From a virus (Duplodnaviria > Heunggongvirae > Uroviricota > Caudoviricetes), in the IMG/VR virus record IMGVR_UViG_3300033070_001123: a DNA stretch of 64,000 nucleotides, one strand, 5' to 3'. This document shows, in pieces, positions 13,623 through 64,000 of the stretch. How positions within the stretch are numbered: the stretch's first letter is position 1; each line of letters opens with the position of its first letter. The position numbers were made by a program, and so were the translations under genes. Under the pieces are notes generated by a model. That model saw only the letters and a program-made list of their open reading frames with translations. It did no database searches and was not told where the DNA came from.

Positions 13623-13686
13623 TCGTATCCCCTAAAGATTTCCTATACCATTATCGGGCAGCATTTAGAGCTAATAGGAATTAAAA

Positions 13687-21844: not shown

Positions 21845-22663
21845 TCAAGACTGAAGTATAGCCTCCAATCCCTTCATATAGTTGGGATTGAGTTCCACTT
21901 TTTTCTGCAACCGCTCAATAATTTTGGAGTGCATTTGACTGATTCTGGACTCGCTATAACCAGTCTCTTTTGCTATCTCCTTCATGGTCATATTGTCGTA
22001 GTAGTGCATATGGACAATTTTCCTCTCAAGAGGAATGAAATTCTTGCCCATAAGCTTCTTGAACATTTCTTCACGAAGAACGGTAGTATCTGGTTTCTCT
22101 TCGTCAGTTGTAATGCTCTCTATTTGAATCTCTTCCCCTGTATCAGAGTCTTCAGAGCGACCAGCATTCATGCTGATACAACTAACCGGAGTAGCCTTTG
22201 CGCTAATCTCCATGTACTCATCCAGGGAAAGACCCATATGGTCGGCAATCTCTTCATGAGTTGGCATTCTACCAAGCTCTGATTCAAGAGTCTGCTTTAC
22301 CTTTTGTATCTTGGAGTATCGCTGTCTAACAAGACGCGGAACCCAATCAACCTGACGAATGTTGTCAAGTATAGAACCCCTTATGCGATGTATCGCAAAG
22401 GTTTCAAACTTGTTCTTGAGAGACGGATCAAATCTCTCAACAGCATGGAACAACCCGTCCGTACCCCAAGCAACAAGGTCGCCAATATCGACCTCTCTTA
22501 TCTTCTTGTGCATTCTTTCTGCCACTTTTGTTACAAGTGGATAATAAATCTCAAGTAAAGAGTTTCTTGCTTTGATGTACTGCGGGTCTTGCTTGTCCAA
22601 CTTCTCTCGTATTACAACAAACTCGTCCCACTTGTTTCTGATTGATTCTTCACTAATCATCAA
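21845..22663 (-). CDS. Phage-encoded sigma-70-family sigma factor (FliA/sigma-28-like).
   Basis: Region 2 (DLVAWGTDGLFHAVERFDP...TFAIHRIRGSILD) and a region 4 helix-turn-helix (MTMKEIAKETGYSESRISQMHSKIIERL). Confidence 0.8.
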   Translation of the reverse strand: MMISEESIRNKWDEFVVIREKLDKQDPQYIKARNSLLEIYYPLVTKVAERMHKKIREVDIGDLVAWGTDGLFHAVERFDPSLKNKFETFAIHRIRGSILDNIRQVDWVPRLVRQRYSKIQKVKQTLESELGRMPTHEEIADHMGLSLDEYMEISAKATPVSCISMNAGRSEDSDTGEEIQIESITTDEEKPDTTVLREEMFKKLMGKNFIPLERKIVHMHYYDNMTMKEIAKETGYSESRISQMHSKIIERLQKKVELNPNYMKGLEAILQS

Positions 22664-35271: not shown

Positions 35272-35332
35272 GAAAAAACCTCCTGACTAACCGTTTATCG
35301 GCAATCAGGAGGCCAGAAAGGAGGTAGCAATT

Positions 35333-35764: not shown

Positions 35765-37018
35765 TTACTTGGTGACGGGAAGAGTCGCGGGGGCGGTTGT
35801 TGAGGTATTGAAGGGAGTATTAGGACGAGCAGAAGGCTGACCAAGAGCCGTTCTGATAGCGCCCATGAAGTCGCCAGACAGAGAGGTGAAGCTCATGTTC
35901 TGAGGGAGGAAACCGTTGAAGTTCTGGAATGCAGAACCCATGTTTCGAGAAATCTCAATCTGAGCAAAGGTTTGACCGCCGATTCCCTCATAAGCCGCAT
36001 AGAGAAGCTTCTGGGCTTCGGCCTTGGCGCGACCCTCAGCAAGAACAGCAGATGCTCTGTTCTCAGCAGCCGCCTTCTCCGCCTCAGACGCAATCTTCAA
36101 TCTTTCAGCCTCAGCCTGAGCCGCAAGAATGGTTTGCTGCTTCTGCGCTTCAGCAGCGGTCAGTTTTGCGGCGGCTTCCTGCTCAGCCTTGAGCTTGGCA
36201 ACCTGCTTGTCTCTTTCGGCCTCAACAACAGCCTTGTTCAAGTCCGCCTGAGCAACGGCTCTTACTCTCAGAGCGTCAGCCTCAGCAGCCTTGGTTTCTT
36301 CGTCGGCGCGCAACTTCTTTTGCTGGGCAATCTGGCGAGCTTTGATTTCCTCAGCGTACTTCGGGTCGAGACCGATCTTCTCGATAACGAAGTTCTCAAC
36401 AATGATTCCCTGCTTGCGAAGCTCGCTATCGGGCGAGGCGAGATCCTGCTCGATTTCGGTCTGCAACTTAACAAGGCCTTCGCCAGAGTAGGCGTCGGTT
36501 GCCTTCATCTTTGTTGCATGATTCTTGACAACCAACTGAACAGTGTTGCGAAGAAGACGCTCTTCGATAATGTTCGGGTCGGCAGCGTCCATATGGGCGT
36601 GATAGTTCTTGTGAACATTCACAATACTTGGCTGATCGAATCTCCAACGAACGCTGAGATTGATGTGCATGTCTTGCTGGTCTTGCGACTGAACAAGATA
36701 TGCGTCATAATCTCTGCCATGACCGCTCTCTCTTGCCGTTGGCGGAGTGTCATTCATGACGAAAACTCTGCTCGTCATGTCGTAGCGATAGATATTGGTC
36801 GTTATTCGGTTTCTGGAATAGGTTCCAGGAGGAAGAGGGTTGGGATCAACACCACTCCAGGTCTCTTTGACGCCAACCTCGCTACCAGCAACGGTTTCGA
36901 GGTCAACAAGGGCAACAACGCCCAAAAGAACACCAACACCAATAACACCCGAAATAGCAAGCTTGACCGGAAATTGACTCATCGAATTTGCTCCTGAATA
37001 TGGACTTCTGCGACTCAT
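35765..37018 (-). CDS. SPFH/band-7 (stomatin/prohibitin/HflKC-like) membrane protein with a long Ala/Glu/Lys coiled-coil.
   Basis: N-terminal transmembrane helix, SPFH core (QLVVKNHATKMKATDAYSGEGLVKLQTEIEQDL...GIIVENFVIEKIGLDPKYAEEIKARQIAQQ), then an AEAxxK coiled-coil. Sampled sequence is about 57% G+C. Confidence 0.75.
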   Translation of the reverse strand: MSRRSPYSGANSMSQFPVKLAISGVIGVGVLLGVVALVDLETVAGSEVGVKETWSGVDPNPLPPGTYSRNRITTNIYRYDMTSRVFVMNDTPPTARESGHGRDYDAYLVQSQDQQDMHINLSVRWRFDQPSIVNVHKNYHAHMDAADPNIIEERLLRNTVQLVVKNHATKMKATDAYSGEGLVKLQTEIEQDLASPDSELRKQGIIVENFVIEKIGLDPKYAEEIKARQIAQQKKLRADEETKAAEADALRVRAVAQADLNKAVVEAERDKQVAKLKAEQEAAAKLTAAEAQKQQTILAAQAEAERLKIASEAEKAAAENRASAVLAEGRAKAEAQKLLYAAYEGIGGQTFAQIEISRNMGSAFQNFNGFLPQNMSFTSLSGDFMGAIRTALGQPSARPNTPFNTSTTAPATLPVTK

Positions 37019-45068: not shown

Positions 45069-46685
45069 TTAGGACTTGACAACAGCGCCAATCGGAGGAG
45101 CCTTGACGCTGTTCAGGTTGAGGCCCATCTTCTTGACATCCTCAGCGCTCTTGAAGGGCTGACCAGTGCCGTCAGCGTTAGCGACCTGGAGGAACTTCAT
45201 GAGAGTCTCAGTAACGGCGAGGTCAGCAATCTGCTTGAGAACAGGAGGCAGGTTAGCGCCGCCCGTTGCAGCAATGCCGCGACCGATACCAGCGCCCAAG
45301 CAGGCGAGGCCGACTTCCATGACCGAAGGACCGTCGCCCGTCTTGGCCCCGTTGAGGAGGCGCATGTGAGGCTCCATGCCCTTCATGGCAATGATGAGGT
45401 CTTCGCTGGTGACCTGACCAGTGATATCGTTGGTGCGAGTGAGCGCCGAAATCTTGCTGCGCTCAACGCATTCGCGGATAGTCGCCGGAATCTGACCCGC
45501 CAAGAACTCGGCGGCAGGATTCAGGTCAGTACCGTCAGCGAGCAAGTCGCCGCCGTACTTCTGAATCAGACGCAGCGTTGCCTCGCGGTCGGGCGGCTCA
45601 ACAGGGATAACCGTGTCGATACGACCAGGACGGAGGAAGGCGCGGTTGATGTTCTCGGCGTGGTTGGTCGTCAAGATCGTGATGATCTCAGCGTCCTTGT
45701 AGTCAGCGCCGTCAATGGTGTTCAGCAACTCGTTCAACTGAGTGCTGCGAGGACCGTTAGTAGCAATGTCAACGTCCTCAGCAAAGATGACACAGGGCGA
45801 GTACAGCTTGGCGTACTTCAGAGCAATCGGCAGGTCTTCGACGTTCGAAACGTACATGAACGTCCAGCCGTTGTCTTCGCAAATCTTGGCCGTGGTGTAG
45901 GCGGTCAAGGTCTTGCCGCAGCCGTAAGGACCAGTGAGAAGAACGCCGCGCTTGAGGGGAATACCGAACTCGCGGAACGCGCCCGTCTTCTCAATCGCAG
46001 AGAACAGACCAGTCTGGATGAGGTCAGCAACTTCCTTGCCGAAAACAAGGTTGTCCTTACGAGCATTGGAAACGTCCAGGAAGGTCGGAGCGTCGTTCGT
46101 CGGGTGGAAATCGCGGCCTTCGCGCATCCAGGCGAACGAGACCTTGATGGCCTTGCCCTTGTAGATGCTCTTCTCGCGAAGGTTCTTCTCGGTACGAGCC
46201 GCAATGTTCTGTACCGACTTCTGGTACTTCTTGAGAATCGTACCGCCGATGATGAACTTCGGCTTGGTGTTGCCCTTGCCAGGAATGACGGTCGTAAGAA
46301 CGCTGTCCTTCAACTGAGGGAACGAAATGTTGCCCCAAGGAACCTGAGTCTTGGCGTTGTGACCAATCGGAACCGTCATCATGGTCGGAGGGGTCGGACC
46401 CCAGAAACCAGGAGTCGGAGTACCGATAGCAATACCGAACTCCTCAAGACAGGCGCGATTGAAGTTCACCAAGCCGTCGAGAGGGAAACACTCGATCTCA
46501 TGGTTGATAGACGTTTCGGCCTCTTCGTCAGCCTGAATGCCGAGAAGAGCGTCAATCGCCTCCTGAATCTCCATGTCGCGGGGGTCGCTGGGCAGAGTAA
46601 TCAACTTACCAGAACGCTCAACCTGAACGTCCTGAAAGGGATTCTCCTGAAGTTCCGTCTTCTTTGCTTTGGGAGTGATAGACAT
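45069..46685 (-). CDS. AAA+ ATPase (538 aa). A second copy of the same architecture as 16851..18194, but in a G+C-rich gene.
   Basis: Walker A GPYGCGKT, Walker B VIFAEDVDI, and second region of homology PGRIDTVI. About 57% G+C in a counted 60-nt sample, against about 38% elsewhere. The long antisense ORF 45366..46868 is the usual high-GC artefact. Confidence 0.75.
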   Translation of the reverse strand: MSITPKAKKTELQENPFQDVQVERSGKLITLPSDPRDMEIQEAIDALLGIQADEEAETSINHEIECFPLDGLVNFNRACLEEFGIAIGTPTPGFWGPTPPTMMTVPIGHNAKTQVPWGNISFPQLKDSVLTTVIPGKGNTKPKFIIGGTILKKYQKSVQNIAARTEKNLREKSIYKGKAIKVSFAWMREGRDFHPTNDAPTFLDVSNARKDNLVFGKEVADLIQTGLFSAIEKTGAFREFGIPLKRGVLLTGPYGCGKTLTAYTTAKICEDNGWTFMYVSNVEDLPIALKYAKLYSPCVIFAEDVDIATNGPRSTQLNELLNTIDGADYKDAEIITILTTNHAENINRAFLRPGRIDTVIPVEPPDREATLRLIQKYGGDLLADGTDLNPAAEFLAGQIPATIRECVERSKISALTRTNDITGQVTSEDLIIAMKGMEPHMRLLNGAKTGDGPSVMEVGLACLGAGIGRGIAATGGANLPPVLKQIADLAVTETLMKFLQVANADGTGQPFKSAEDVKKMGLNLNSVKAPPIGAVVKS

Positions 46686-47034: not shown

Positions 47035-50000
47035 TTACACGACTCTTCTGTGTCTCAAAGCTCTAAAGAAGGGGTAGCCGTCACTCGTCATGAGGCCCGG
47101 CTTAATTACTAAGCCAGGATTTTCTTCTTTCATCTTTTTCATCAAAAGAGTCCCAACACCCTGCCTTCGGTATTTTGGAACAACCTCAATCATGCTAATA
47201 TGCAACTCATTGTCAAATATGTTGTAGCTCAGTTGTCCAACAAGATCTTTCGTTTGCGTATCGTAGGCTCGTATTACCATGTCTGATTGCCCATGATGAT
47301 ACCCGATACACTCTGAATCCTCAACCTCTATGTTACTCTTGATAGGCTCTGCGTTTCTCTGGGTCTCGTCCGGCGAAAACTCGCTTGCTAGTTTACATAA
47401 ATCATACCAACCGCTTGCTCTTCGTTTCGTTTTTCCTTTGAGCGCTTCCTTCTTTTTACGAGCAATCCCCTCAAGAGTCCAAAGTATCGTCGGGTAGCGA
47501 GACCTTTCTTGTTTCTTGTTGAAGTATTTACTTATCCATCTTGGTATTCTGATTTGGGTTTGCATGAGAAGTTTTTCAACATCTTCTATAACAGCGTCGT
47601 CAAGACAGTATGGAAGATTTTCCGCTCTAGCAGAATCAGCGGCTTCGTCTTGAATCTGCTGCTTTTCGTCCTCCCAATCGCTAAGCGCTTTTTGATACTC
47701 TTCAGGATCTTCAAAATCATCTTCCTGAGGTTCGTCTGGAAACTCTAAATAAGAATCATCATAGTGGTCAAAGAATTTCTCGTTGTTTTCTTGCCTCTTG
47801 TTATATATTTGCGCAATCTGAAACTGAGCATCAAGAACCTGAGCCATAAACCTTCTTTGATTTTTCTCGTCAAGCTGATCAAAGCTTCTAAGCTTGCTGT
47901 AATCAAACTCTTTAGCTTGACTCATATTGTAATAAGCCTTTTCAATAGTTTTCTGTTCAACAGCTTGCGGGCTTGTATATCTTTCCCATCCTTGCCATTT
48001 ATCTTTGAGAGCTTGATCTGTCTCTCTTTGAACTGCCGCCGCTGCCTCTGGTATATAGTCTTTGAGATATATCTTTTTGTTCTCGGGCGACATTCTATCG
48101 AACTGTTCTTTCTTCATAACGCTATGCTTTGCAGACTTATGCGCCCAATTCAATGCCATTGCTTTCATTTCTTTTTCGTTAATAAGACCTTGATTGAGTT
48201 TTTGTATATCAGAATCAACAGCGGCTCTGGCTAATACCTTCGAGACATGATGCGTTTGATATCCGCCGTCATTACGGTATCCTCTATCATTGTTGAGCTT
48301 TTTGTAAACAGCTTCATATGCGTCTTGATATTCCCATTTTGTTAGAGATACTGGTAAGCCGTAGCCCTCTGCTCCCTTATATATGGCTCTTTCAAGATCG
48401 TCGTCCATGCTTCCATAGCTAAGATCGCTATAATCAAAGTCGTCCATACCCTCAATAGCAGCGCCTTTGAGAGTTCTCATCCACTCGCCAATCATTGCTT
48501 TTAGATTGTCGCTTGGGTCTACGTTTCCAGTCTTTGGACCGTTGCCATAAATTTGTCTAAAGGTCCAACTATTAGGGCTAACTTCCATTGTTACATAAGG
48601 TACATTAGAAGGATCTCGAAGCGAAAAGATCCTGGTATTACCTTTCATAACGTCATCGCAATAACTTCCGACGCAATTGTGAGCAACAAGATGTTGAACT
48701 ACATAAGAATGTATTCCTTCAACTTCTATGTTATAAACCTTACCTGTAAATTGTATTTTTTCATGGCAAATAGGTTTAACTAAAACTTCTTTTTTATGTA
48801 TCCAAAAGTTTGATTTTCTAGAATCTCTTTTTATGCTTGCGTCAGCACCCTCAAGAGTGTATGCTGTTTTTCTATTTCTTTTAGTATTATCTTTTTTTGA
48901 TAAAGAAGGAAACCCTCCCAATCTAAGAGAGATCTCAGTCATTTGAAGAGCAAGCTCTTTGGATGTTTGATGTAAAACATTTCTGCCTTTGCATCCATCT
49001 CCATCAAATATTCCTTGCCAAATATAAATAACTTTTTCATTAGGCAAATTAAGGAATTGCGAAGGTATTTTTTTGTTAGAACATCCACATCCAAACATTT
49101 CACTGAACCATCTGCACAGCATTCTGCTGTTTACTAAAACAACTATTCCCCCAAATTCTTCCGAATCTTTTCTTATGCGCGGCGAAAAGCCATTTTTTGA
49201 GAAAAAATCAAAAATTCTATTAACATATTCTGTTTCTGTTTTTGAAAGAGCAAAACTCAGTTTGTCTCCGTCATTTGAGCCTTCCGCTATGTATATCCCA
49301 AAAATCCATAATAAATCTTTATCTACATTATATATCTTATTGCCTTTAGATTCGTTTATAATACAATGATCTGGAATTTTTATTTCATTTATATCTTCAA
49401 ATTCTTTTGGAACTCTTGATAAAATATACGAATCTTTTAGCGATTCTATAGGTTGCCACTCAATAATGTGTTTTTCCTCAGGTTTATTATTTCTACATAA
49501 AGATCCACACGTATGAAGTCTACAAGGCTTATTTCCTTTGTGATTCGATTTCAGAGATAAAAATAAATGTTCGGGAGTAACATATATAGGATCTGTACCT
49601 AATTTAGTTTGTAATTTAATAATTTCACCAACATAATCTCTTTCGAATTTTTCTGTTACTTTTTGAAATGTTCCATTTTCAACAAGAACTAAATCTCCTA
49701 TTTCTATTTCTTCTATAGGAATAAACCCTTGTTTAGTTCTTATTAAAGAACCAGCAGCAAAACAATGACCCATCTTACCGCCTTCGGTTCTTAGATTGTT
49801 CTTTGTTACAACTTGCTTGATTGTCCAACCGGCCCAATCAGGTCTACTCCATTGAGGACCAAATACAACGTCTTCTCTTTTTTCGCCGTAATACTCAAGA
49901 CCTTCGCCTTCTCCAGAAATAACATCATGCCAGTTTTCAGCAAACTGATCTGCTTGGTCAAGAGTTAGTCCGGCAAGGTTGGTGTTTGCATTTGTAACGC

Positions 50001-50532
50001 CGTATTCATTGATAACGATGGCTTTTTCTTCTGGCGTCTGAGCGGCTTGAAAAGCTTGTCTCGCAGGAAGAACGCCTCTTACATACCAGTCAAATATGCT
50101 TTGAGCAATATCTGGAATCAAAGTAAAATTGACATTTCCTCGGCCAGGAATTGAATATCCGTCACCAGTAAGAGCCATGCCGTCAGGTTTCTTCTTAATC
50201 TGATATTCATTTCTTGCTTTTCTTAGAGATACAAGTAGCCACTTCTGAAATTCAAGGTTCTGAAACCTATTGGCAAGCTGAAGCTCTTGAGGAGTATTTG
50301 GGTTTTGCTTAGGTTGTTGGTTCTGCGGCCTAATCTTGTCCATAAGCAAAGCTGACGGAGTTTGAGGAAACTTGCGCAGATAACCAATAACCTGTTGTTT
50401 TAGTTCTGGGTTTGTTATCGTTGTAACAAAGCTTACCGTTTCTTCAGGAACTCCAATTCGCGCAAGAAAAGCCTCAACAGAGTTATCGCCTGCTGCGGAT
50501 TCTTTTATGATTTGACCATAATACCAGTTCAT
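47035..50532 (-). CDS. Intein-containing protein (1165 aa). The 802-aa extein has an MNWY N-terminus and a C-terminal GNAT-like acetyltransferase motif.
   Basis: Residues 257-619 are an intein: N-terminal CFAAGSLIRT, TPEH block B, LAGLIDADG motifs (IFGIYIAEGS and IWQGIFDGDGC), C-terminal VYNIEVEG...VVQHLVAHN followed by Cys as the +1 residue. The C-terminal extein has VPKYRRQGVGTLLMKKM, a GNAT motif A. Confidence 0.7.
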   Translation of the reverse strand: MNWYYGQIIKESAAGDNSVEAFLARIGVPEETVSFVTTITNPELKQQVIGYLRKFPQTPSALLMDKIRPQNQQPKQNPNTPQELQLANRFQNLEFQKWLLVSLRKARNEYQIKKKPDGMALTGDGYSIPGRGNVNFTLIPDIAQSIFDWYVRGVLPARQAFQAAQTPEEKAIVINEYGVTNANTNLAGLTLDQADQFAENWHDVISGEGEGLEYYGEKREDVVFGPQWSRPDWAGWTIKQVVTKNNLRTEGGKMGHCFAAGSLIRTKQGFIPIEEIEIGDLVLVENGTFQKVTEKFERDYVGEIIKLQTKLGTDPIYVTPEHLFLSLKSNHKGNKPCRLHTCGSLCRNNKPEEKHIIEWQPIESLKDSYILSRVPKEFEDINEIKIPDHCIINESKGNKIYNVDKDLLWIFGIYIAEGSNDGDKLSFALSKTETEYVNRIFDFFSKNGFSPRIRKDSEEFGGIVVLVNSRMLCRWFSEMFGCGCSNKKIPSQFLNLPNEKVIYIWQGIFDGDGCKGRNVLHQTSKELALQMTEISLRLGGFPSLSKKDNTKRNRKTAYTLEGADASIKRDSRKSNFWIHKKEVLVKPICHEKIQFTGKVYNIEVEGIHSYVVQHLVAHNCVGSYCDDVMKGNTRIFSLRDPSNVPYVTMEVSPNSWTFRQIYGNGPKTGNVDPSDNLKAMIGEWMRTLKGAAIEGMDDFDYSDLSYGSMDDDLERAIYKGAEGYGLPVSLTKWEYQDAYEAVYKKLNNDRGYRNDGGYQTHHVSKVLARAAVDSDIQKLNQGLINEKEMKAMALNWAHKSAKHSVMKKEQFDRMSPENKKIYLKDYIPEAAAAVQRETDQALKDKWQGWERYTSPQAVEQKTIEKAYYNMSQAKEFDYSKLRSFDQLDEKNQRRFMAQVLDAQFQIAQIYNKRQENNEKFFDHYDDSYLEFPDEPQEDDFEDPEEYQKALSDWEDEKQQIQDEAADSARAENLPYCLDDAVIEDVEKLLMQTQIRIPRWISKYFNKKQERSRYPTILWTLEGIARKKKEALKGKTKRRASGWYDLCKLASEFSPDETQRNAEPIKSNIEVEDSECIGYHHGQSDMVIRAYDTQTKDLVGQLSYNIFDNELHISMIEVVPKYRRQGVGTLLMKKMKEENPGLVIKPGLMTSDGYPFFRALRHRRVV
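48676..49764 (-). mobile_element. Intein with a LAGLIDADG homing-endonuclease domain (363 aa) inside 47035..50532.
   Basis: I mapped the boundaries from codon positions. The Cys codon aca/TGT is at 49762-49764. The Asn codon att/AAT is at 48676-48678, followed by the Cys codon gca/TGC at 48673-48675. Confidence 0.65.
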
Positions 50533-57924: not shown

Positions 57925-58547
57925 GAGGACCGTCCTTCCCTCATAATCTTTTGAACGAAGTTCATGACTTGAGAGTTTGGAGGCATGCTCTTGAGCTTAT
58001 TGTACTCTTCGTGAGAGCCGATCCAATACCATATAAACTGAGATTGAAACTTAACAGCTAATGCTCTGTAACGACCGCCAACCTGAGCAGACCAAACTTC
58101 TAGCTTTCCCCTATTTTCGGGTAATGGCTTAATGCCAACTTGTTGAGGATTGGAAAGAAGCGTTTGATATTTTTGAGAGGCTAGCTGTTGAACTTGAACT
58201 GGCAATAAGGATAGCGAGTCTCTGAAGCTTTTGGTTTGCCAATGCCCAGTATCAAAGCCTGCAAATTTTACCAAACCATGTTCATGAGAGTTTGATTCTA
58301 GGTTTTTCTTAAAAGCGTCTGGATCTTCTTCAAGTGTATTAAGGTCTTTGGTTAGACTCTTTCCAGGTATTCCTGTTGGTTTGCATTTTAGACAGTATAT
58401 AGGAATGCGATCTTTTCTTGCTTTTTCTATATCAGATTCTTTTGCTCTCATTACATCGCCACAATGGTCGCAACGATAACGAAAAAATCTACTACCAGGG
58501 ATAGGTAGTAGATTCATTTTATAGTTTTCAGAAACTATGATTTTCAT
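57921..58547 (-). CDS. Hypothetical protein (208 aa) with a Cys4 zinc ribbon (CDHCGD...CLKC).
   Basis: ORF with 4-nt overlaps at both ends. Confidence 0.45.
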   Translation of the reverse strand: MKIIVSENYKMNLLPIPGSRFFRYRCDHCGDVMRAKESDIEKARKDRIPIYCLKCKPTGIPGKSLTKDLNTLEEDPDAFKKNLESNSHEHGLVKFAGFDTGHWQTKSFRDSLSLLPVQVQQLASQKYQTLLSNPQQVGIKPLPENRGKLEVWSAQVGGRYRALAVKFQSQFIWYWIGSHEEYNKLKSMPPNSQVMNFVQKIMREGRSS

Positions 58548-59141
58548 GCCGCTTCCTGTTGCCCGTCATAAAACATTTCAACAATACGCTTTACATTATG
58601 AACTTCTATACCTAATAGTTTTGATATTTGAGAAGACGATAGGTTTGGATTTTTGTTTTTGAAACCTATAATCTTATCAACTATTTTCTTGAAGTTAGAG
58701 TCTTTTCTAGATAAGAACTTTTCTCTTATTTCTGCTCGCTCATTTGGATTGAGAGCTTTCATAAGATATGGAAGAAGGGTTTGATTAGCTACATTAAAAT
58801 GAGCAGCAATTTGATTGATGGTATAGCCCTTTCTGTAAAGATCAGCAGCTTTCTTTCCTTTATTTTCGTCTAGGGCGGGGCCGTTATACGCATTATTTCC
58901 AGGACCAAACCGTTCTGGTTGAAACCCTTTTCTTTTGGATAAAAAGTTTCTTAGAATATTGGGACCGATATTCATTTGTCTTGATATTTGCTGAAGAGAT
59001 ACGCCTTTTTGATAGAGATACGCCTTTTTGATATAGATCCCAAGCTTGATCAACAATTGATTTATCATTTTGCAATTCGTCGGTTCTGAGACCAGTCCAT
59101 TGACCGTCCGCAAACTTTGCCATTTCATACCAGTTAGACAT
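58544..59141 (-). pseudogene. Gene for a protein with three helix-turn-helix-like repeats (N-terminus MSNWYEMAKFA), split into two frames (58893..59153 and 58544..59128) by a 19-bp tandem duplication.
   Basis: Perfect direct repeat gagatacgcctttttgata at 58996-59014 and 59015-59033. 19 nt is not a multiple of three. Both ORFs contain LYQKGVSL, one encoded by each copy. The ATG at 59141 is verified, with a GGAGG site 6 nt upstream. Confidence 0.55.
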
Positions 59142-59563: not shown

Positions 59564-60255
59564 GAGGTATCCTTTCGTTGCGCGAAATTTTATTAGATGT
59601 TTGGTTTGAAGAATGCGACTAGAGGAGCAAGAGGCGGGATATACAGAACAATTAGCGGGGAGCAATCCAAGGTATCCTTCTTGCGCGAATTTTAAGTGAC
59701 GGTATACCCTTTAGAAATTTACTCTACGGGTGAGCGAGATAAGGTATCCTTTTATTCCTGAATTTTAAGTGACGGCATGCCCTTCATTATAATGAACCTT
59801 GGCATGACAGTTATGACAGAGTATATCGCATTTGGCAATTTCTGCTAAAACTCTTTTCATTCCATACTTACAGAGGTATGTAACATCTCCGTCCTTTGTT
59901 GATGGATCTCTATGATGAAAAGATAAACATGCAGGATGCTTTTCTCCGCAATGCATACATGGATGAGTTCTTTTATACTCCCAACAGTATTCTCTACATT
60001 GTTGATAAATCTTTTTCTTGTATGAAGTCCTATACTCTTTACTCTTTGCGTTTTTAATTCTATTCTTCTCTTTGTTTGTCATAATTATCCCTCGTATACC
60101 CCAAAGCTTTCAGGTATATTATCGGCAAAGAGTCTTTCCGTAGCTGCGCATGCCTTAGGCTACCTCCGCAAACTAGGTATCTTTTAGATTAGAGAAGGGG
60201 CGGGCTGGGGGGTGGGGTATCCTTTCCAACAAAATTAAATCGTTATGAGTGAGGA
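59564..60255. repeat. Block of degenerate direct repeats (AGGTATCCTT...GCGCGAA(A)TTTTA...GTGACGG) that flanks and overlaps the HNH gene.
   Basis: Copies start near 59568, 59671, 59744, 60174 and 60222. Units B and C reproduce the 3' end of the HNH gene. Confidence 0.5.
59765..60082 (-). CDS. Small HNH endonuclease (105 aa).
   Basis: CMHCGEK...HHRDP...LCHNCHAKVH. Confidence 0.65.
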   Translation of the reverse strand: MTNKEKNRIKNAKSKEYRTSYKKKIYQQCREYCWEYKRTHPCMHCGEKHPACLSFHHRDPSTKDGDVTYLCKYGMKRVLAEIAKCDILCHNCHAKVHYNEGHAVT

Positions 60256-60429
60256 GTCTTCCACTGCGCCATTATTAAATAGCAAACCCCAACCAACATG
60301 GCTGGGGGTTGCTGAGACAATCAAATCTGTGTGAGTCTTTGGTGGTGGGAGTTTAGTTCTTCATGGCTCGCTCCTTTGTTAAGACCCTTCGTTCCGTTGT
60401 CTGACTCTGTTGTTCTTTGCGACCGAAGT

Positions 60430-60723
60430 TTAGTTACGGTCGATGGTCGTCTTCATGGGGCCTTGCCCTTTGAGGCTGAGGTAGCGGAGGGCCGCTGCGT
60501 CCTCTCCCGCCTCTCGGACGATTCGAGCGGCCTTGCGGCAAGCCTCTCTGCTGCCCTTGGCGACGAGGGCCTTGCCGTTGTTGTGGACCTTGAGGGCGAC
60601 GGCCTTGGCGTCGTCGTAGGAGAGTTCGGGGTTGATGCGCTGAACGAGGGAGATGACGAATTCGAGGCTGTGGGTCTTGCTGTTCTTGAGGAAGGTTCGG
60701 AATGGCTTGCGAGCGGTTTTCAT
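60430..60723 (-). CDS. Small hypothetical protein (97 aa) in the G+C-rich array.
   Basis: I chose the ATG at 60723, which has an AGGAAG/AAAGGA ribosome-binding site. The TAA stop lies inside a GAAGTTTAGTT motif copy. The longer ORF-track version 60430..60912 runs across a motif copy. Confidence 0.4.
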   Translation of the reverse strand: MKTARKPFRTFLKNSKTHSLEFVISLVQRINPELSYDDAKAVALKVHNNGKALVAKGSREACRKAARIVREAGEDAAALRYLSLKGQGPMKTTIDRN

Positions 60724-60763
60724 GGGCTGTCCTTTCTTCCTTACAAGCGACGGCAGGAAGTTT

Positions 60764-61006
60764 AGTTCCCCCGTTTCTTCTTCCGCTGCCTCTCCTTGCG
60801 GTTGTGCTTCTTCTCTTGCTGTTCGGCCCAGTTCTGGATGGCTTGGGCGTCGCGGTCTGCGTCGGTCTGATACTTCATGCGGCTCTGGCTCCTCGGCGGT
60901 TGCTGAGTTCATTCCAAAGGGTCAACATGAGTTCGGCGTCACCCTCCATCTTGGCGACCTCAAAGGCGTCCATCAATTGACCGAATGACATTTCGCTGAT
61001 TTTCAT
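60764..61006 (-). CDS. Two tiny coupled ORFs, about 43 aa (ATG 61006) and about 38 aa, with a GCATGAAG overlap. Low confidence.
   Basis: Hand-translated as MKISEMSFGQLMDAFEVAKMEGDAELMLTLWNELSNRRGARAA and MKYQTDADRDAQAIQNWAEQQEKKHNRKERQRKKKRGN. The second stop TAA lies inside motif copy #3. Confidence 0.25.
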
Positions 61007-61048
61007 GGGTAAGAGTCCTTTCTTACCTAACTGGTAAGGTTGGGAAGT

Positions 61049-61276
61049 TTAGTTCTTCCCGGCGACGGTTGCGAGGGTCTTGCGGAGTTTCTTGGGGATG
61101 TTCACTCGGGTCTTGTCGTTGCCGACGAAGCGGAGAATCTTGTCCACCATCTTCTGGGCCTTGTCGGGTCCAGCGACTCGGACGATATCCCCAACGTCGA
61201 TGTAAACACCGAGTTGGACGTTGGCTGACTTGCGGGGCTTGGACTTCTTGGACTTGGGCTTGGTTGCGTTGCTCAT
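61049..61276 (-). CDS. Small basic protein (75 aa).
   Basis: ATG at 61276 is 18 nt after motif copy #5. The TAA stop is inside motif copy #4. Confidence 0.5.
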   Translation of the reverse strand: MSNATKPKSKKSKPRKSANVQLGVYIDVGDIVRVAGPDKAQKMVDKILRFVGNDKTRVNIPKKLRKTLATVAGKN

Positions 61277-61314
61277 GGCTTTCTCTCTTTCGCGAGAAGT
61301 TTAGTTCTCGGTTC

Positions 61315-61614
61315 TTAAGACTCCTTGACGATTCGGTAGCCCCAGTTCGGGACTTGCTGAATCACGAACCCTTCGGCGACGTTGGGAAGCGGGAAGAATT
61401 CGCCCTGATACCACTCTCCCTCTCTGACGCATCCGCCGTTGTAGCGGATTGCGCCGTACTTGGGAGGGATTGAGGTGGAGGAGCCGATGTAGCCCTTGAA
61501 AGGGTAAGGCGTTCCAAGACCGTCCTTAGCGACATGCTTGGCCTTCTTCTCGCAAGTCTTGGCGTCCCAAGTCTCGGCCTTGTGCTGGTAGAATTCGGTC
61601 TTCTGCTTTGCCAT
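61315..61614 (-). CDS. Small hypothetical protein (99 aa).
   Basis: ORF with an AAGAG ribosome-binding site. It is bracketed by motif copies #6 and #5. Confidence 0.5.
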   Translation of the reverse strand: MAKQKTEFYQHKAETWDAKTCEKKAKHVAKDGLGTPYPFKGYIGSSTSIPPKYGAIRYNGGCVREGEWYQGEFFPLPNVAEGFVIQQVPNWGYRIVKES

Positions 61615-61800
61615 GCTCTTGTTATTTAAGAGAGAAGTTTAGTTTCGGCGTTCGTAAGGCAGCGGGCGTTCACTCATAACGATTAGGCGTTGTTAAGTAA
61701 CAAGTGCGGCTCGGGCGACTAACTCCCGTCCGCTGCTGCCGCCAGTCTCGCGGCAACCTTGCTTTTTCCGTTGACTTTCCCTTTTGCGCGGAAAGTTTAG

Positions 61801-62046
61801 TTACGAATACCTACGGCTCTGGTCGAGTCTCTTGAGGTTTGCCCAAACTCCTTGCGGCGTTGATGAGGGGACTTCTGCGACGACTCCAACATGGGTTTGA
61901 ACGCCCCAGACTTTGCGCTCGTAACCGATGGCTCGTTGGGTTGCTTCTTCGAGCGTACAGGCGACGGCGTTCTGAATCCACTCTCCCTCGATGATTGTTC
62001 CGTCGCTGCTCTCTTTGCGGATGTTGATGAGGGAGAAGTTTGCCAT
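61801..62046 (-). CDS. Small hypothetical protein (81 aa).
   Basis: ATG at 62046 is 19 nt after motif copy #8. The stop abuts motif copy #7. Confidence 0.45.
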   Translation of the reverse strand: MANFSLINIRKESSDGTIIEGEWIQNAVACTLEEATQRAIGYERKVWGVQTHVGVVAEVPSSTPQGVWANLKRLDQSRRYS

Positions 62047-62070
62047 GCTATTTAGGTCATGGCAGGAAGT

Positions 62071-62379
62071 TTAGTTCCGCGAAGTGATGTCCTTCAGTTC
62101 GATGTTGATGGTTCGGTCCTCCTTATGAACCACCACAAGGTTCTGGCGGCTCGTCTTGGGGTCATGGGCGAACCCAACGACTTCCCAACCGTTGTCATTG
62201 AAGTAGAGGGGACGCTCGCCTCCTGCGACAATGTAGCGGAATCCAACGATGTCGCCCGCCTTGAGGGAAGTTGGGAAGGGCGGCTCTCGGAGGATGGGGA
62301 GAATGAGGTTTCCCATTCCCTTGCTGGCGCGCTTCGATTCGACTCGGATTTTGGCGGCTTCTTGTTCAGACAGAGGCAT
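62071..62379 (-). CDS. Small hypothetical protein (102 aa).
   Basis: ORF. Its TAA stop is the TAA inside motif copy #8. Confidence 0.5.
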   Translation of the reverse strand: MPLSEQEAAKIRVESKRASKGMGNLILPILREPPFPTSLKAGDIVGFRYIVAGGERPLYFNDNGWEVVGFAHDPKTSRQNLVVVHKEDRTINIELKDITSRN

Positions 62380-62554
62380 GGGCTTCCTCCTGTTGCTTCT
62401 TAAGTTCCTCGATATACCGCTGATGAGCGGTCTTACCCGTCAAGCGAAACAAAACTTGACAAGTAATGCAACGGACTTCGGCCTTGCATGTTGGGTCGAG
62501 TACCTCAAAGGGTTCTCTGCAATCCTCGCAAGTTCTTGTTTGGATTGCTTCCAT
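62366..62554 (-). CDS. Small zinc-ribbon protein (about 62 aa: CEDC...CKAEVRCITC).
   Basis: I chose the ATG at 62554. The ORF-track start at 62563 is a TTG. It is preceded by motif copy #9. Confidence 0.45.
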   Translation of the reverse strand: MEAIQTRTCEDCREPFEVLDPTCKAEVRCITCQVLFRLTGKTAHQRYIEELKKQQEEAHASV

Positions 62555-62578
62555 GCCTAACAAGGGTAGGCAGGAAGT

Positions 62579-62806
62579 TTAGTTCTCCTCCAAGTATTGA
62601 GCGGCGGAAGCGACTCTCTTGCGTGCTTCTTCCCAAACTTGAGCGGAAGTTCCGTCGAGTTCGGTCTTGGCTTTCTCGGAGATGAGTTTGCAAGCCATTG
62701 CGGTTGCTTTGAGCATGCGCTCGCCTCCGTGTTCTTCCATGAACACAACCATTGACCATACAAGGTCATCGTCGGAGAGTTTGGGCTTTTGATTGTCTTG
62801 CGGCAT
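62579..62806 (-). CDS. Small acidic hypothetical protein (75 aa).
   Basis: ATG at 62806 has a GAGGG ribosome-binding site and lies inside the 37-bp perfect repeat. The TAA stop is inside motif copy #9. Confidence 0.5.
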   Translation of the reverse strand: MPQDNQKPKLSDDDLVWSMVVFMEEHGGERMLKATAMACKLISEKAKTELDGTSAQVWEEARKRVASAAQYLEEN

Positions 62807-62835
62807 ACCAATCCCTCTTTGCGCGGAAGTTTAGT

Positions 62836-62994
62836 TTACTTCTGCGTTTCCTCGGCGTAGTTGAAACCTTCCATCCATGCCTTGCGCTCTTCGGACCCTT
62901 CGGCGTAAAGGCAGGACGTTGAGGGCTTCTTATCAAAGAAAGCGTTGTAGCCCTCGTCCCAAAGGTTACTGTATTGTTCTCTGTTGAGCGGCAT
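62836..62994 (-). CDS. Small hypothetical protein (52 aa). Not in the ORF track because it is under 60 aa.
   Basis: Hand-translated as MPLNREQYSNLWDEGYNAFFDKKPSTSCLYAEGSEERKAWMEGFNYAEETQK. Its start context is identical to that of 62579..62806 (37-bp repeat). The TAA stop is inside motif copy #10. Confidence 0.35.
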   Translation of the reverse strand: MPLNREQYSNLWDEGYNAFFDKKPSTSCLYAEGSEERKAWMEGFNYAEETQK

Positions 62995-63022
62995 ACCAAT
63001 CCCTCTTTGCGCGGAAGTTTAG

Positions 63023-63244
63023 TTACGACTTAAGCGTAACCCAACCGCTGTCAAACGCTGGCGGAGTCTTGAGCGGCTCGCCTCGCTCTTTGCGGAGTTG
63101 TTCGCTGTGCGCCCATGAACCCTTGTAGGGCGTTTGGGGAGTTGGACGCTTCGGCTTGGGCTGGCGATTCCTTCGGAGATTCGCCTCGATGTTGGCGATG
63201 ATGACTTTGCCATGTTCAACGGTAGCGGCGAAGGGGTCGAGCAT
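63023..63244 (-). CDS. Small hypothetical protein (73 aa).
   Basis: ATG verified at 63244. The stop abuts motif copy #11. Confidence 0.5.
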   Translation of the reverse strand: MLDPFAATVEHGKVIIANIEANLRRNRQPKPKRPTPQTPYKGSWAHSEQLRKERGEPLKTPPAFDSGWVTLKS

Positions 63245-63480
63245 GTTAGTTCTTAATGTTTGGGAAGTTTAGTTTCGCATAGACCTGGTTCCTCGGCGAA
63301 CCTGATTCACTCATAACGATTACGCTGCGTTGGCCCGAGAGCCAACCTTGCGGCTGGCGGATTGCTCGTCCCTTACGTCTCGGCATGGTTCAGAAAGTTT
63401 AGTTCTTAAACCGCCAAAGGGCCTTGCGGCCCTTATTGGGGGATTACCGATTGTCGGCTCCCTGCTTGGCGGCTGGAGGA

Positions 63481-63834
63481 TTACTTCTTCTTCTTGGGCT
63501 TGACCTCGATGACGTTGCCGCCGTTGGCGTTGGCGGCTCGAAGTTCGTTGACTTGGTTCTGGAGGGCAACCATGCCGCCCGCAACGCCCGCCATCCATTG
63601 GCGATTCATGGCGATGAGGGATTCGGTCGTCCGAACGATGGTTCGGTCGCCCAATTGTTCGGCCGCGGCGGCGCGCTTGCGAAGTTCGTCCTCGATGTCC
63701 TTGAGCGTCATGCCGGGGAGTTGGACGGGGACGTTGCCGCCCGCCATTGCCGCGATTTCGGCTTGCTGCGCTTCCATGAGGGCTTGGGCGGGGTTCTGCA
63801 TGAGTTTGGCGAGTTGGTTGCGGTCGAGAGGCAT
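63481..63834 (-). CDS. Small hypothetical protein (117 aa) with a Lys-rich C-terminus.
   Basis: ORF with an AAAGGA ribosome-binding site. The hairpin agggcc-ttgc-ggccct (63418-63433) lies just downstream on the minus strand. Confidence 0.5.
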   Translation of the reverse strand: MPLDRNQLAKLMQNPAQALMEAQQAEIAAMAGGNVPVQLPGMTLKDIEDELRKRAAAAEQLGDRTIVRTTESLIAMNRQWMAGVAGGMVALQNQVNELRAANANGGNVIEVKPKKKK

Positions 63835-64000
63835 GATTCGGTCCTTTCAGTTAGGCGAAGGGTTCATTCCCTTCATGCCTATCTGTTCTGCGCCGAAAGT
63901 TTAGTTTCGGAATTGAACAACCGAAACCGATTGAAGTTTGGGCTGGTTCTGAAGTTTAGTTCTTCAGATTGAAGCGGTCGAATGGACGACGGCGTTGCCG

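Follow-up and report, generated by a model that had tools for sequence, protein, structure and literature searches.

Repeated Intergenic Elements in Viruses and Integrons

Small genes parted by a repeated intergenic element have been described in several viruses and in integrons, and the closest concept to the locus reported here is that of the promoter early stem-loops (PeSLs), the composite cassettes of terminator and promoter known from T4-type phages (Arbiol et al., 2010, PMC2839356; Comeau et al., 2014, PMC4122927). Our locus belongs to a tailed virus of the class Caudoviricetes (IMG/VR record IMGVR_UViG_3300033070_001123), of which a stretch of 64,000 nucleotides (64 kb), hereafter called the window, was analyzed; it represents about one fifth of a genome of approximately 330 kb. 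From position 60328 to its edge, the window holds an array of tiny genes on the minus strand, punctuated by a short element that is present in 15 copies and whose core reads AACTAAACT on the coding strand. Comparison with related arrays suggests, with a probability that we put at roughly 55%, that this element is a phage-specific promoter core giving rise to leaderless or minimal-leader mRNAs, and that it doubles as the recombination seam of a hyperplastic cassette region.

The element has the role and the evolutionary behavior of the PeSLs with a different promoter grammar, and it is not a member of that class. Both are conserved modules located between small, mostly ORFan, co-oriented genes of hyperplastic regions, both have a lineage-dependent consensus, and in both cases the indels and replacements that separate close relatives are bounded by the modules. 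The build of the PeSL module, a stem-loop/terminator just upstream of a promoter that ends at the start codon, may have a counterpart in some copies of the element. However, PeSLs contain sigma-70 -35 and -10 boxes (TTGACA-N17-TATAAT and variants) and a Shine-Dalgarno (SD) sequence, whereas the array element has no -35/-10 pair: a 13-nt core occupies positions -31 to -19, half of the genes would lack any leader, and the stem-loop is weak and optional. In addition, the array forms one contiguous block of 13 to >20 kb with 40–60 copies and a codon usage unlike that of the rest of the genome, and the phages that carry it are huge phages, unrelated to T4 as far as seen.

A second comparison is offered by promoters that are read by phage polymerases. 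In phage P23-45, each pre-early gene lies behind a strongly conserved motif read by the virion polymerase (bioRxiv 10.1101/2022.12.01.518664), and the early promoters of phiKZ and AR9 (PMC7598289) were compared as members of the same category. Similar to these promoters and to those of T7, T3, and SP6, the element is a high-information motif placed before many small, probably early, genes in one region and one orientation; it is lineage-specific and independent of the -35/-10 grammar of the host. As among T7, T3, and SP6, the core is uniform within a genome and different between genomes. The phage-polymerase promoters nevertheless abut the transcription start (approximately -17 to +6, or -11 to +1), whereas the array core is separated from the predicted start by 18 nt of loose sequence. 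Moreover, those promoters are read by phage-encoded RNA polymerases, whereas no polymerase gene was found in the 64-kb window of the array phage.

Integrons share with the locus long arrays of small, co-oriented, promoterless-looking open reading frames (ORFs) that are parted by a repeat, a fast turnover of cassettes, and a repeat that is homogeneous within an array and different between genomes. However, no integrase IntI, attachment site attI, or cassette promoter Pc was found at the array loci searched, and neither strand of the element matches GTTRRRY/RYYYAAC. The attC site is an imperfect palindrome of 57–141 bp that simply lies downstream of each ORF, whereas the array repeat measures about 13 nt and stands at a fixed distance upstream of the next start.

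Two other viruses deserve mention. In the halovirus HF2, intergenic repeats of 29 and 58 bp, whose sequence and position are conserved among related viruses, were initially known as repeats and only afterwards shown to be promoters (PMC8707807). HF2 thus offers a case of short conserved intergenic repeats carrying promoters, but it is an archaeal virus with AT-rich TATA-type motifs in far fewer copies and without a cassette array. The three promoters of the N4 virion polymerase consist of a 5–7-bp stem and a 3-nt loop at about 11 nt from the start (PMC4496689). The likeness here is a promoter read partly as a small DNA hairpin, together with a giant protein (3421 aa) encoded in the window. In the array, however, the stems are weak, variable in register, and mostly missing, the loop would have 6–7 nt and lie about 25 nt from the inferred start, and sequence-level searches of the 3421-aa protein gave no polymerase motif. 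The element is neither an integron, nor an N4 hairpin promoter, nor a sigma-28 promoter, nor an Rfam family.

A G+C-Rich Array of Tiny Co-Oriented Genes

The array and its end are located as follows.

60328..64000, minus strand: G+C-rich array of tiny co-oriented genes, delimited by G+C content, G+C at third codon positions (GC3), and collinearity with contig L001
60277..60307 (13528-13558 in L001), minus strand: strong intrinsic terminator closing the array at its 3' end, CCCCAGCCatgTTGGTTGGGG followed by TTTGCTATTT, identified by terminator scan and folding

On the plus strand, the core RAAGTTTAGTTY has 15 matches with at most one mismatch in the window, all on that strand and all within 60348-63962, compared with a mean of 2.9 and a maximum of 9 in dinucleotide-preserving shuffles. 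A preliminary description of this DNA, made from its letters alone, had counted at least 15 copies and had named a similar density of the motif in the A+T-rich part as the sign of a trivial compositional word. The exact 9-mer AGTTTAGTT occurs 15 times in 60348-63962 and, both strands counted, not once in the remaining 60 kb; the refutation suggested at that time therefore fails.

Lookup of the 117-aa array protein recovered an identical metagenome contig from JGI (L001), which is collinear with the window and in which the array runs past position 64000 for at least 10 kb more. Within 13.5 kb of L001, at a G+C content of about 0.53, the coding strand carries all 39 copies of [AG]ACTAAACT; no copy lies outside the array in either the window or L001. 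A walk upstream of L001 with an exact 42-mer gave no match in viral_contigs or metagenome_contigs.

In 1-kb windows, G+C climbs at 60 kb from about 0.40 to 0.52–0.57 and keeps this level to the edge, against approximately 0.37–0.46 over most of the window and about 0.39 outside the array. This agrees with the abrupt compositional change described earlier, although the figure of 57–72% given then is true of short stretches only. Synonymous positions account for most of the change, as GC3 amounts to 0.70 for ORFs of the array but to 0.35 for ORFs elsewhere. With 16% T, the array's coding strand is markedly depleted in this base. The element recurs every 350 nt or so, with a range of 55–508 nt that is wider than the 150–350 previously indicated, and it does lie between small minus-strand ORFs, except that five units contain no ORF of any size.

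No DNA similar to the array or to the adjoining 20 kb was found among cultured or deposited phages, and a 14-base core pattern searched across IMG/VR gave, among the matches listed, only single chance matches. Rfam returned no match at gathering thresholds in the window and none at E <= 1 in L001 1-14300, and a tRNA/tmRNA search of the window was negative.

Related Arrays and Lineage-Specific Core Words

Three proteins served as handles to recover relatives: the UvrD helicase and two array proteins of 75 and 242 aa. They comprise IMG/VR contigs of 334, 257, 371, and 494 kb, as well as metagenome contigs in which the homologue of the 242-aa protein is 82% to 43% identical. The 334-, 257-, and 494-kb contigs are the IMG/VR records IMGVR_UViG_3300033067_001661, 3300020577_007233, and 3300005681_000225, and samples containing such phages include JGI 3300020576, 3300033067, 3300020577, and 3300005681. 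Among cultured phages, the best protein matches to the helicase are just 25–28% identical. Every recovered relative has a co-oriented array of tiny genes of 10 to >20 kb, about 10 points richer in G+C than its flanks wherever flanking sequence was recovered. In the 494-kb contig (lineage C), both boundaries are seen, and the array (about 16 kb, 41 copies) is internal to the contig. The preliminary description had suggested a search for the same element in small-gene arrays elsewhere, and arrays of this kind are carried by these phage and metagenome contigs. The lineages are related, and copy counts across them are therefore counts of non-independent events.

The core is uniform inside each genome and different between genomes. 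In the window genome, the conserved part reads gGAACTAAACTTyC on the coding strand; the words seen among the lineages include GAACTAAACTT, GGCTAGACTT, GACTAGACTT, and tCACTGAC, distributed as follows.

Lineage A (the window genome), L148, L149, and L150: GAACTAAACTT
Lineage B (257-kb contig): aaGGGCTAGACTTTC, short form GGCTAGACTT
Lineage C (494-kb contig): GACTAAACTT
L151: aAGACTAGAyTT
Lineage D (L152-L154): tCACTGAC

Matches on the reverse strand number 0–1 per related locus, with the exception of L151, which has 6 with a looser pattern. In the literature, the core words turned up only in primers and in the core of the coronavirus transcription-regulating sequence, CUAAAC. The latter is a coincidence, since the DNA is that of a double-stranded DNA phage with ribonucleotide reductase, ThyX, helicases, and a sigma factor.

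A Fixed Distance Between the Core and the Gene Start

Copies of all lineages were aligned on the CT that their cores share, and the A of the fixed ATG was counted as +1. In 205 of the 392 copies (39–63% per locus), an ATG starts exactly 28 nt after the C of the core, and this distance is constant in at least seven lineages although their core words differ. The preliminary description had placed the ATG 18–19 nt downstream, which holds and can be made more exact: in 8 of the 15 window copies it lies 21 nt after ...AACTAAACT, or 19 nt after the 12-mer, and in L001 it lies exactly 21 nt after ...ACT in 21 of 38 copies. The fixed ATGs are the start codons chosen by an independent gene caller in L001, and the base that precedes them is nearly always C.

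The same position is marked in copies that have no ATG there. In lineages A, B, and C taken together, these copies carry A at +1 in 31 of 52 cases (p = 1.4e-6) and a purine in 43, with C or T at -1 in 35; most other loci show a like +1/-1 pattern. Moreover, SD cores peak sharply at +2 to +6 (57 occurrences over all loci) and are followed by an ATG 11–13 nt later, as in the window leaders AGAAAGGACAGCCCATG (60737) and AAGAAAGGACTCTTACCCATG (61024). There are therefore two classes of genes, those with the ATG on the fixed position and those with a minimal SD leader that begins there, and an mRNA 5' end at this position would explain both.

Between -13 and -5 the copies are A-rich within a G+C-rich context. 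Upstream of about -33, no conservation was seen, and the aligned copies contain no other promoter signal. The upstream ORF runs right into the element and stops either on its internal TAA or on a tAA or TGA formed with the preceding bases; the use of the embedded TAA as a stop, noted earlier, is true for 5 of the 15 window copies. The GAGGG or AAGAG ribosome-binding sites reported before the next ATG also exist, but in only about one fifth of the copies with ATG at the fixed position.

The window copies, numbered from the end of the array, are listed below.

Copy 1, 60348..60359, minus strand: last copy of the array, GGAGTTTAGTTC on the plus strand; predicted +1 at 60328
Copy 2, 60425..60436, minus strand: predicted +1 at 60405 (G); SD leader, then a 3-codon ORF
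Copy 3, 60757..60768, minus strand: predicted +1 at 60737 (A); leader AGAAAGGACAGCCC from +1, then the ClpS-like ORF
Copy 4, 61044..61055, minus strand: predicted +1 at 61024 (A); leader AAGAAAGGACTCTTACCC, then the 43-aa ORF
Copy 5, 61296..61307, minus strand: ATG exactly at +1 (61276)
Copy 6, 61634..61645, minus strand: ATG exactly at +1 (61614)
Copy 7, 61792..61803, minus strand: predicted +1 at 61772 (A); then an ORF-less unit of 127 nt
Copy 8, 62066..62077, minus strand: ATG exactly at +1 (62046); minicistron ATG ACC TAA within the 21-nt spacer
Copy 9, 62574..62585, minus strand: ATG exactly at +1 (62554)
Copy 10, 62826..62837, minus strand: ATG exactly at +1 (62806); element and spacer identical to those of copy 11
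Copy 11, 63014..63025, minus strand: ATG exactly at +1 (62994)
Copy 12, 63264..63275, minus strand: ATG exactly at +1 (63244)
Copy 13, 63394..63405, minus strand: predicted +1 at 63374 (A); then an ORF-less unit of 99 nt
Copy 14, 63896..63907, minus strand: ATG at +1 (63876) of a 9-codon ORF; then an SD sequence (AAAGGA) and the 117-aa ORF
Copy 15, 63951..63962, minus strand: predicted +1 at 63931 (A); empty 55-nt unit in tandem with copy 14

The minicistrons of the preliminary description are present in the sequence. The 3-codon ORF of copy 2 (ATG AAG AAC TAA) runs into copy 1, and its unit looks like an emptied cassette; the unit after copy 1 has 51 nt and ends in the terminator of the array (hairpin z = -4.1).

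Several further features of these units were recorded. An exact 35-nt duplicate that comprises element, spacer, and ATG stands before two different genes (62803-62837 and 62991-63025), and three independent Logan contigs stop exactly within it, which indicates that the repeats of the array break short-read assemblies. The ORF-less units 61646-61772 and 63276-63374 have, on the coding strand, the 15-mer AATCGTTATGAGTGA in common, which is found again in inverted orientation at 60240-60254, inside a conserved block that follows the array. As candidates for structured RNAs, these two units were rejected, their folding z-scores (-0.4 and -0.5) being nothing special.

Terminators and Hairpins Around the Element

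On the coding strand of nine arrays, 29 strict intrinsic terminators were identified, of which 22 end at most 45 nt upstream of an element, against 13% expected (binomial p of about 1e-13 by our own arithmetic). Most elements have no strict terminator upstream, and generic terminator counts in the array are at shuffle level. In lineages A–C, L150, and L151, the gap between terminator and core is 8–17 nt. This is too short for a separate promoter, which argues that the element itself restarts expression; conversely, an element that acted within a long RNA would be left untranscribed by a terminator just upstream of it. The window offers one weaker instance:

63408..63432, minus strand: terminator-like hairpin GGGCCGCAAGGCCC followed by TTTGGCGGTTT, 3 nt upstream of copy 13, read by eye and below the strict criterion

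Lineage D has an additional conserved block, cgcgccCAAAGATAGGTG (also CAAAGATAGGTG), between terminator and core. About one fifth of the elements in L152, L153, and L154 are composite in this way, with a strong intrinsic terminator, cgcgccCAAAGATAGGTG, 6 nt, CACTGAC, 23 nt, and ATG in that order (for example L153 1520-1570, 8550-8600, and 12440-12490).

The preliminary description had also placed many copies of the core in the loop of inverted repeats with compensatory stems, and had read this as selection for structure. The flanks of each copy were folded and compared with chimeras in which left and right flanks came from different copies. Native flanks are more stable in eight of nine loci (z = -2.9, -1.0, -2.95, -2.0, -1.2, -0.55, -1.6, 0.0, and -1.6); the combined z of about -4.6, again our arithmetic, is an upper bound on significance because the loci are related. 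The gain is small, 0.2–1 kcal/mol, and between 15 and 45% of the copies per locus reach -5 kcal/mol or better; in the window genome, 45% do so, compared with 28% of the chimeric flank pairs. Predicted loops have 6–11 nt and stems 3–7 bp, the register varies between lineages, and a hairpin is missing from many copies. Where lineage A has AA and lineage B has GG, the opposite arm shows no compensating change. Compensatory stems such as cgaccg/cggtcg, ctgaag/cttcag, and ccgaaa/tttcgg are thus real in a subset of copies, but they are weak and concern a minority; native stems exceed the chimeric controls slightly, and the claim of selection on a conserved loop is weakly supported. We regard the hairpin or dyad that surrounds the core as secondary, in the manner of the stem-loop of PeSLs, which is likewise optional.

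Exchange of Cassettes at the Element

The block is located in a region of hyperplastic type, in which replacements between close relatives are bounded by the element. The 334-kb contig, whose UvrD helicase is approximately 100% identical to that of the window, illustrates this: in its array, an unrelated ORF has taken the place of the 43-aa ORF of the window, and the gene upstream of a shared element is not the one found in the window. The breakpoints of homology with the window are at the first base of the element and just past the start codon.

At greater distance, turnover is extensive. Only 2 of 17 array ORFs of lineage B have a BLASTP match (E <= 1e-4) in the array of lineage A, to which the 38-aa ORF, homologous by eye, can be added, and the shared genes are in different order. 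Among eight arrays, 65 of 307 inter-lineage high-scoring segment pairs start within -35 to -26 of an element, at its 5' edge, and homology blocks end preferentially just before or just after the next core. Breakpoints and segment starts at the element point to core, spacer, and ORF as the exchanged unit. Tandem empty units 50–61 nt apart and minicistrons of 3 and 9 codons look like deletion remnants.

Neither the window ORFs, nor the genes tabulated for L001 and L148-L154, nor the visible boundaries, among them the upstream one of L143, yielded an integrase or recombinase. Two conserved features lie directly beyond the array.

59765..60082, minus strand: HNH-domain gene (PHROG HNH endonuclease, E = 8e-23)
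60085..60277, no strand assigned: non-coding block downstream of the array, conserved in lineages A, B, and C

In all lineages with a visible boundary, the gene that comes first beyond the array is the HNH gene (tblastn identities of 44–54% at the same position in L126, L127/L140, L141, and L148), and this stable gene might be functionally linked to the array. The non-coding block is found in relatives at about 1330-1545 (L126), 10500-10760 (L140), and 10460-10730 (L141). Its conserved pieces are, in order, GGCGCAGTGGAAG, CACTCATAAyGAT, CCCCnnCCCC, AAAAGTAAGATATCTATATT, and GGTAGCCTAAAGTATACTCAGCTACGG; its possible roles are those of a regulatory region, an origin, or an RNA.

A Candidate Promoter and Its Alternatives

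The preliminary description had left four options side by side, namely that the element serves as a phage-specific promoter, in RNA processing, as a translational operator, or in recombination. The comparative evidence favors the first, combined with a hyperplastic region, and leaves the others lower. This choice builds on a repeat that is exclusive to the array and biased to one strand, on a core that varies by lineage within a fixed geometry, on terminators placed next to elements, and on cassettes that are bounded by the element.

As a promoter, the element would have three parts: a lineage-specific recognition core at about -31 to -19, centered near -25; an 18-nt spacer (-18 to -1), fixed in length and loose in its A-rich sequence, that would provide an A-rich melting region; and an initiator-like pyrimidine/purine step, usually C followed by A. 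Transcription would start at, or within a few nt of, the A at +1. About half of the genes would then be expressed as leaderless mRNAs with ATG at +1, and many of the remaining ones would have a minimal leader that begins with an SD sequence (AGAAAGGAC, then 6–9 nt, then ATG). Each tiny gene or gene pair would have its own start in addition to read-through from upstream units, and the occasional terminators right before an element would form terminator-promoter junctions. The core would be read by a phage-encoded polymerase or specificity factor. Since the 13-nt word is repeated every 350 nt or so, it would also serve as the joint at which recombination links unrelated genes.

Several points weigh against this proposal. 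A core at -31 to -19 without a -10 hexamer fits no characterized class of bacterial or phage promoter, the transcription start at +1 is inferred from sequence statistics, and many bacteria translate leaderless mRNAs poorly. A search of the 64-kb window, about one fifth of the genome, revealed neither an RNA polymerase gene nor a polymerase motif, and its large ORFs gave no polymerase match in PDB or PHROG. The sigma factor encoded by the phage is probably not the reader of the element, given that its regions 2.4 and 4.2 do not vary among lineages A, B, and C despite their different elements. In lineage D, the promoter proper may instead be the extra block that separates terminator and core. 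Finally, an SD-like core is present at -13 to -9 in about 22% of the copies with ATG at +1, against about 9% of the others, which indicates that such genes are also translated from longer read-through RNAs; these spacer sequences fit an element lying inside the mRNA equally well.

The last two observations lead to the explanation that survives best among the alternatives, although we regard it as unlikely: an RNA processing site. Here, an endoribonuclease of phage or host would recognize the core in a polycistronic RNA, possibly as a small hairpin with CUAAAC in its loop, and would cut 22 nt downstream between C and A, releasing leaderless or SD-led monocistronic mRNAs. Such an activity would account for the fixed distance to the ATG, for the start of the SD leaders, and for the C-A step; it is consistent with the weak but non-random complementarity of the flanks and with the SD-like cores in 22% of the spacers, and the block of lineage D could then supply the promoter. 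However, the terminators 8–17 nt before the core in lineages A–C, L150, and L151 would leave the core in no RNA at all, and the hairpins are weak, missing from most copies, and in differing registers. To our knowledge, no nuclease has been described that cuts at a measured distance of about 22 nt from a 13-nt word, and Rfam gave no match.

That the element is primarily a recombination site appears improbable. Under this hypothesis, the word would be the target of a site-specific recombinase or nuclease that moves cassettes as in integrons, its role in transcription being secondary. Replacement and indel boundaries do coincide with the element, the empty tandem units 50–61 nt apart resemble excision scars, an HNH-domain gene follows the array in each lineage with a boundary seen, and the repeats are homogeneous per array and different per genome, like the attC sites of chromosomal integrons. 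Nevertheless, the window, the gene tables of eight array loci, and the boundaries seen contain no integrase or recombinase; the element has 13 nt instead of the 57–141 bp of attC and lacks the R''/L''-L'/R' architecture and GTTRRRY; and the hypothesis leaves unexplained why ATG or SD stands at a fixed distance, why the spacer is A-rich, and why terminators are adjacent. The shuffling itself can be explained by short-homology recombination at a repeated promoter, as proposed for PeSLs (PMC4122927).

We give equally little credence to an ordinary sigma-dependent promoter, in which TAAACT would be a sigma-70 -10 box, with a start about 7 nt after it and a 14-nt leader, or in which CTAAAC/TAAACTT would be a sigma-28-type -35 box for the phage sigma factor. 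The latter (21845-22663) is indeed of the FliA/WhiG (sigma-28) family (TIGR02479, 193 bits, cutoff 189.6), and TA[AG]ACT keeps T1, A2, and T6 of the -10 hexamer in lineages A, B, and C. However, the core of lineage D, CACTGAC, has no TAnnnT. Sigma-70-type sites are not enriched (7 against 5.9 expected in 14.5 kb of array, one of which involves the element), and the aligned copies show neither -35 conservation nor a -10 hexamer at a fitting place. A -10 box at TAAACT would also give no reason for the C-A step 15 nt further or for the SD leaders that start there.

The sigma-28 version rests on the resemblance of TAAACTT to the -35 box of that family, TAAAGTTT. A sigma-28 promoter consists of a -35 TAAA(GTTT), a gap of 11 nt, and a -10 GCCGATAA, with the start about 7 nt on. 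No GCCGATAA-like box is found 11 nt after the core, where the 8 nt read taAaaggC (lineages A and C being those that have TAAAC), and the canonical spacing would place the start about 8 nt inside the ORF. Likewise, TAAA-N14-17-CCGATA has no match in the window, and sigma regions 2.4 and 4.2 are invariant across differing cores in relatives that are 67–94% identical. The minus strand of the window has two exact copies of GCCGATAA (60119-60126 and 35295-35302), each located 25–40 nt upstream of a gene start, and CCCGATAA lies at 13651-13658, ahead of the 3421-aa gene; these sites may be the real targets of the phage sigma factor. A helix-turn-helix protein encoded close to the array (58544-59128) was also considered as the reader and rejected, as it is not conserved in lineages B and C.

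Least probable is a translational element in the mRNA, by which the stop in the core would end the upstream ORF and position ribosomes for re-initiation at the fixed ATG through a phage factor: the genes are tightly packed, the ATG distance is fixed, the triplet at -27 to -25 is a stop (TAA, TAG, TGA) in all three core types, and the upstream ORF uses it in about 45% of assessable cases, against a frame chance of about 33%, but three of the four triplets of the form T-R-R are stops, so that a stop may occur there by chance, a conserved 16S rRNA combined with cores that differ by lineage would require a phage factor that evolves along with them, and neither the SD leaders that start exactly where the ATG otherwise sits, nor the purine/pyrimidine step of ORF-less units, nor the directly upstream terminators are explained.

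Beyond the promoter proposal itself, it is conceivable, though we would advance it only tentatively, that the arrays belong to an undescribed transcription system of huge phages, with a polymerase or initiation factor reading a 13-nt word centered about 25 nt upstream, an RNA start on the A of the start codon that would yield dozens of leaderless mRNAs, separately tuned codon usage, and integrase-free exchange. A ruler-type endoribonuclease that makes leaderless mRNAs from the word is a possible alternative in this respect.

Genes of the Array and Remainder of the Window

The following genes were distinguished in the part of the array that lies in the window.

60430..60723, minus strand: ClpS-like ORF, 97 aa (Pfam ClpS, E = 1.2e-11, 44.7 bits, cutoff 23)
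60762..61006, minus strand: two overlapping tiny ORFs, 43 aa (60875-61006) and 38 aa (60762-60878)
61049..61276, minus strand: 75-aa ORF, kept in lineages B and C
61315..61614, minus strand: 99-aa ORF
61801..62046, minus strand: 81-aa ORF
62071..62554, minus strand: 62-aa zinc-ribbon-like ORF (62366-62554) and overlapping 102-aa ORF (62071-62379), the latter without an element of its own
62579..62806, minus strand: 75-aa ORF
62836..62994, minus strand: RMF-like ORF (ribosome modulation factor), 52 aa (Pfam RMF, E = 3.6e-6, 27.4 bits, just under the cutoff of 27.9)
63023..63244, minus strand: 73-aa ORF
63481..63834, minus strand: 117-aa ORF, the query that recovered L001

The ClpS-like ORF, which is also called as a gene in L001, stops on the AAC TAA of the element, and a second ClpS-like gene is found at 8157-8555 of L001. 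The RMF-like protein is below the cutoff in NCBIfam as well (E = 2.1e-5). The ClpS-like and RMF-like proteins suggest interference with host ribosomes and proteolysis; the array also encodes DUF2958 and many ORFans. The array genes are likely early or host-takeover genes, to judge from this content, from the position of the array upstream of and co-oriented with the replication genes, and from the analogy with the pre-early genes of P23-45.

A short unit containing ...ACTTTCATGGGCG... recurs after some elements (L001 7955-8000 and 8556-8630; merged coordinate 13536 of lineage C) and ends in a terminator in one case; it could be a conserved micro-ORF or a small RNA.

The remainder of the window encodes ribonucleotide reductase, ThyX, SNF2 and UvrD helicases, and the sigma factor, as in a large phage-like genome. 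The 3421-aa ORF (3357-13622) has a sole match, to DUF3383 (tail-sheath-like, residues 1239-1334); it gave no PDB or PHROG match and contains no DxDxD or Rx3Kx6-8YG motif, no fold-level search having been made. An ORF of 1165 aa (47035-50532) combines a Hint and LAGLIDADG intein, a PcfJ-like segment, and a C-terminal GNAT acetyltransferase. Two more G+C-rich islands (45069-46685 and 35765-37018; GC3 of about 0.63 against 0.35) encode an AAA ATPase and an SPFH/Band-7 protein and contain no copy of the array element. With at most one mismatch, AAGAAGTTTG occurs 31 times in positions 1-60000, against 11.6 expected, almost always on the minus strand; it was rejected as a relative of the element, since its sites are mostly inside ORFs, and it is probably a coding word (KKF).

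Significance for Huge Phages

Almost no experimentally grounded regulatory grammar is available for the huge phages known from metagenomes. The arrays provide a searchable signal, a 13-nt word with an exact 28-nt ruler in 40–60 copies per genome, which marks a whole class of genes, likely involved in host takeover (ClpS-like adaptors, an RMF-like protein), and which predicts 5' ends to the nucleotide. As their repeats break short-read assemblies, such arrays are probably under-represented in phage catalogs. The locus also presents one genome with two codon regimes, and it indicates that a repeated regulatory word can turn a region into a hotspot of cassette exchange without an integrase. If the element is a promoter, it would represent a new promoter geometry, would imply a polymerase or specificity factor to look for, and would provide a large natural set of leaderless mRNAs in viruses of bacteria.

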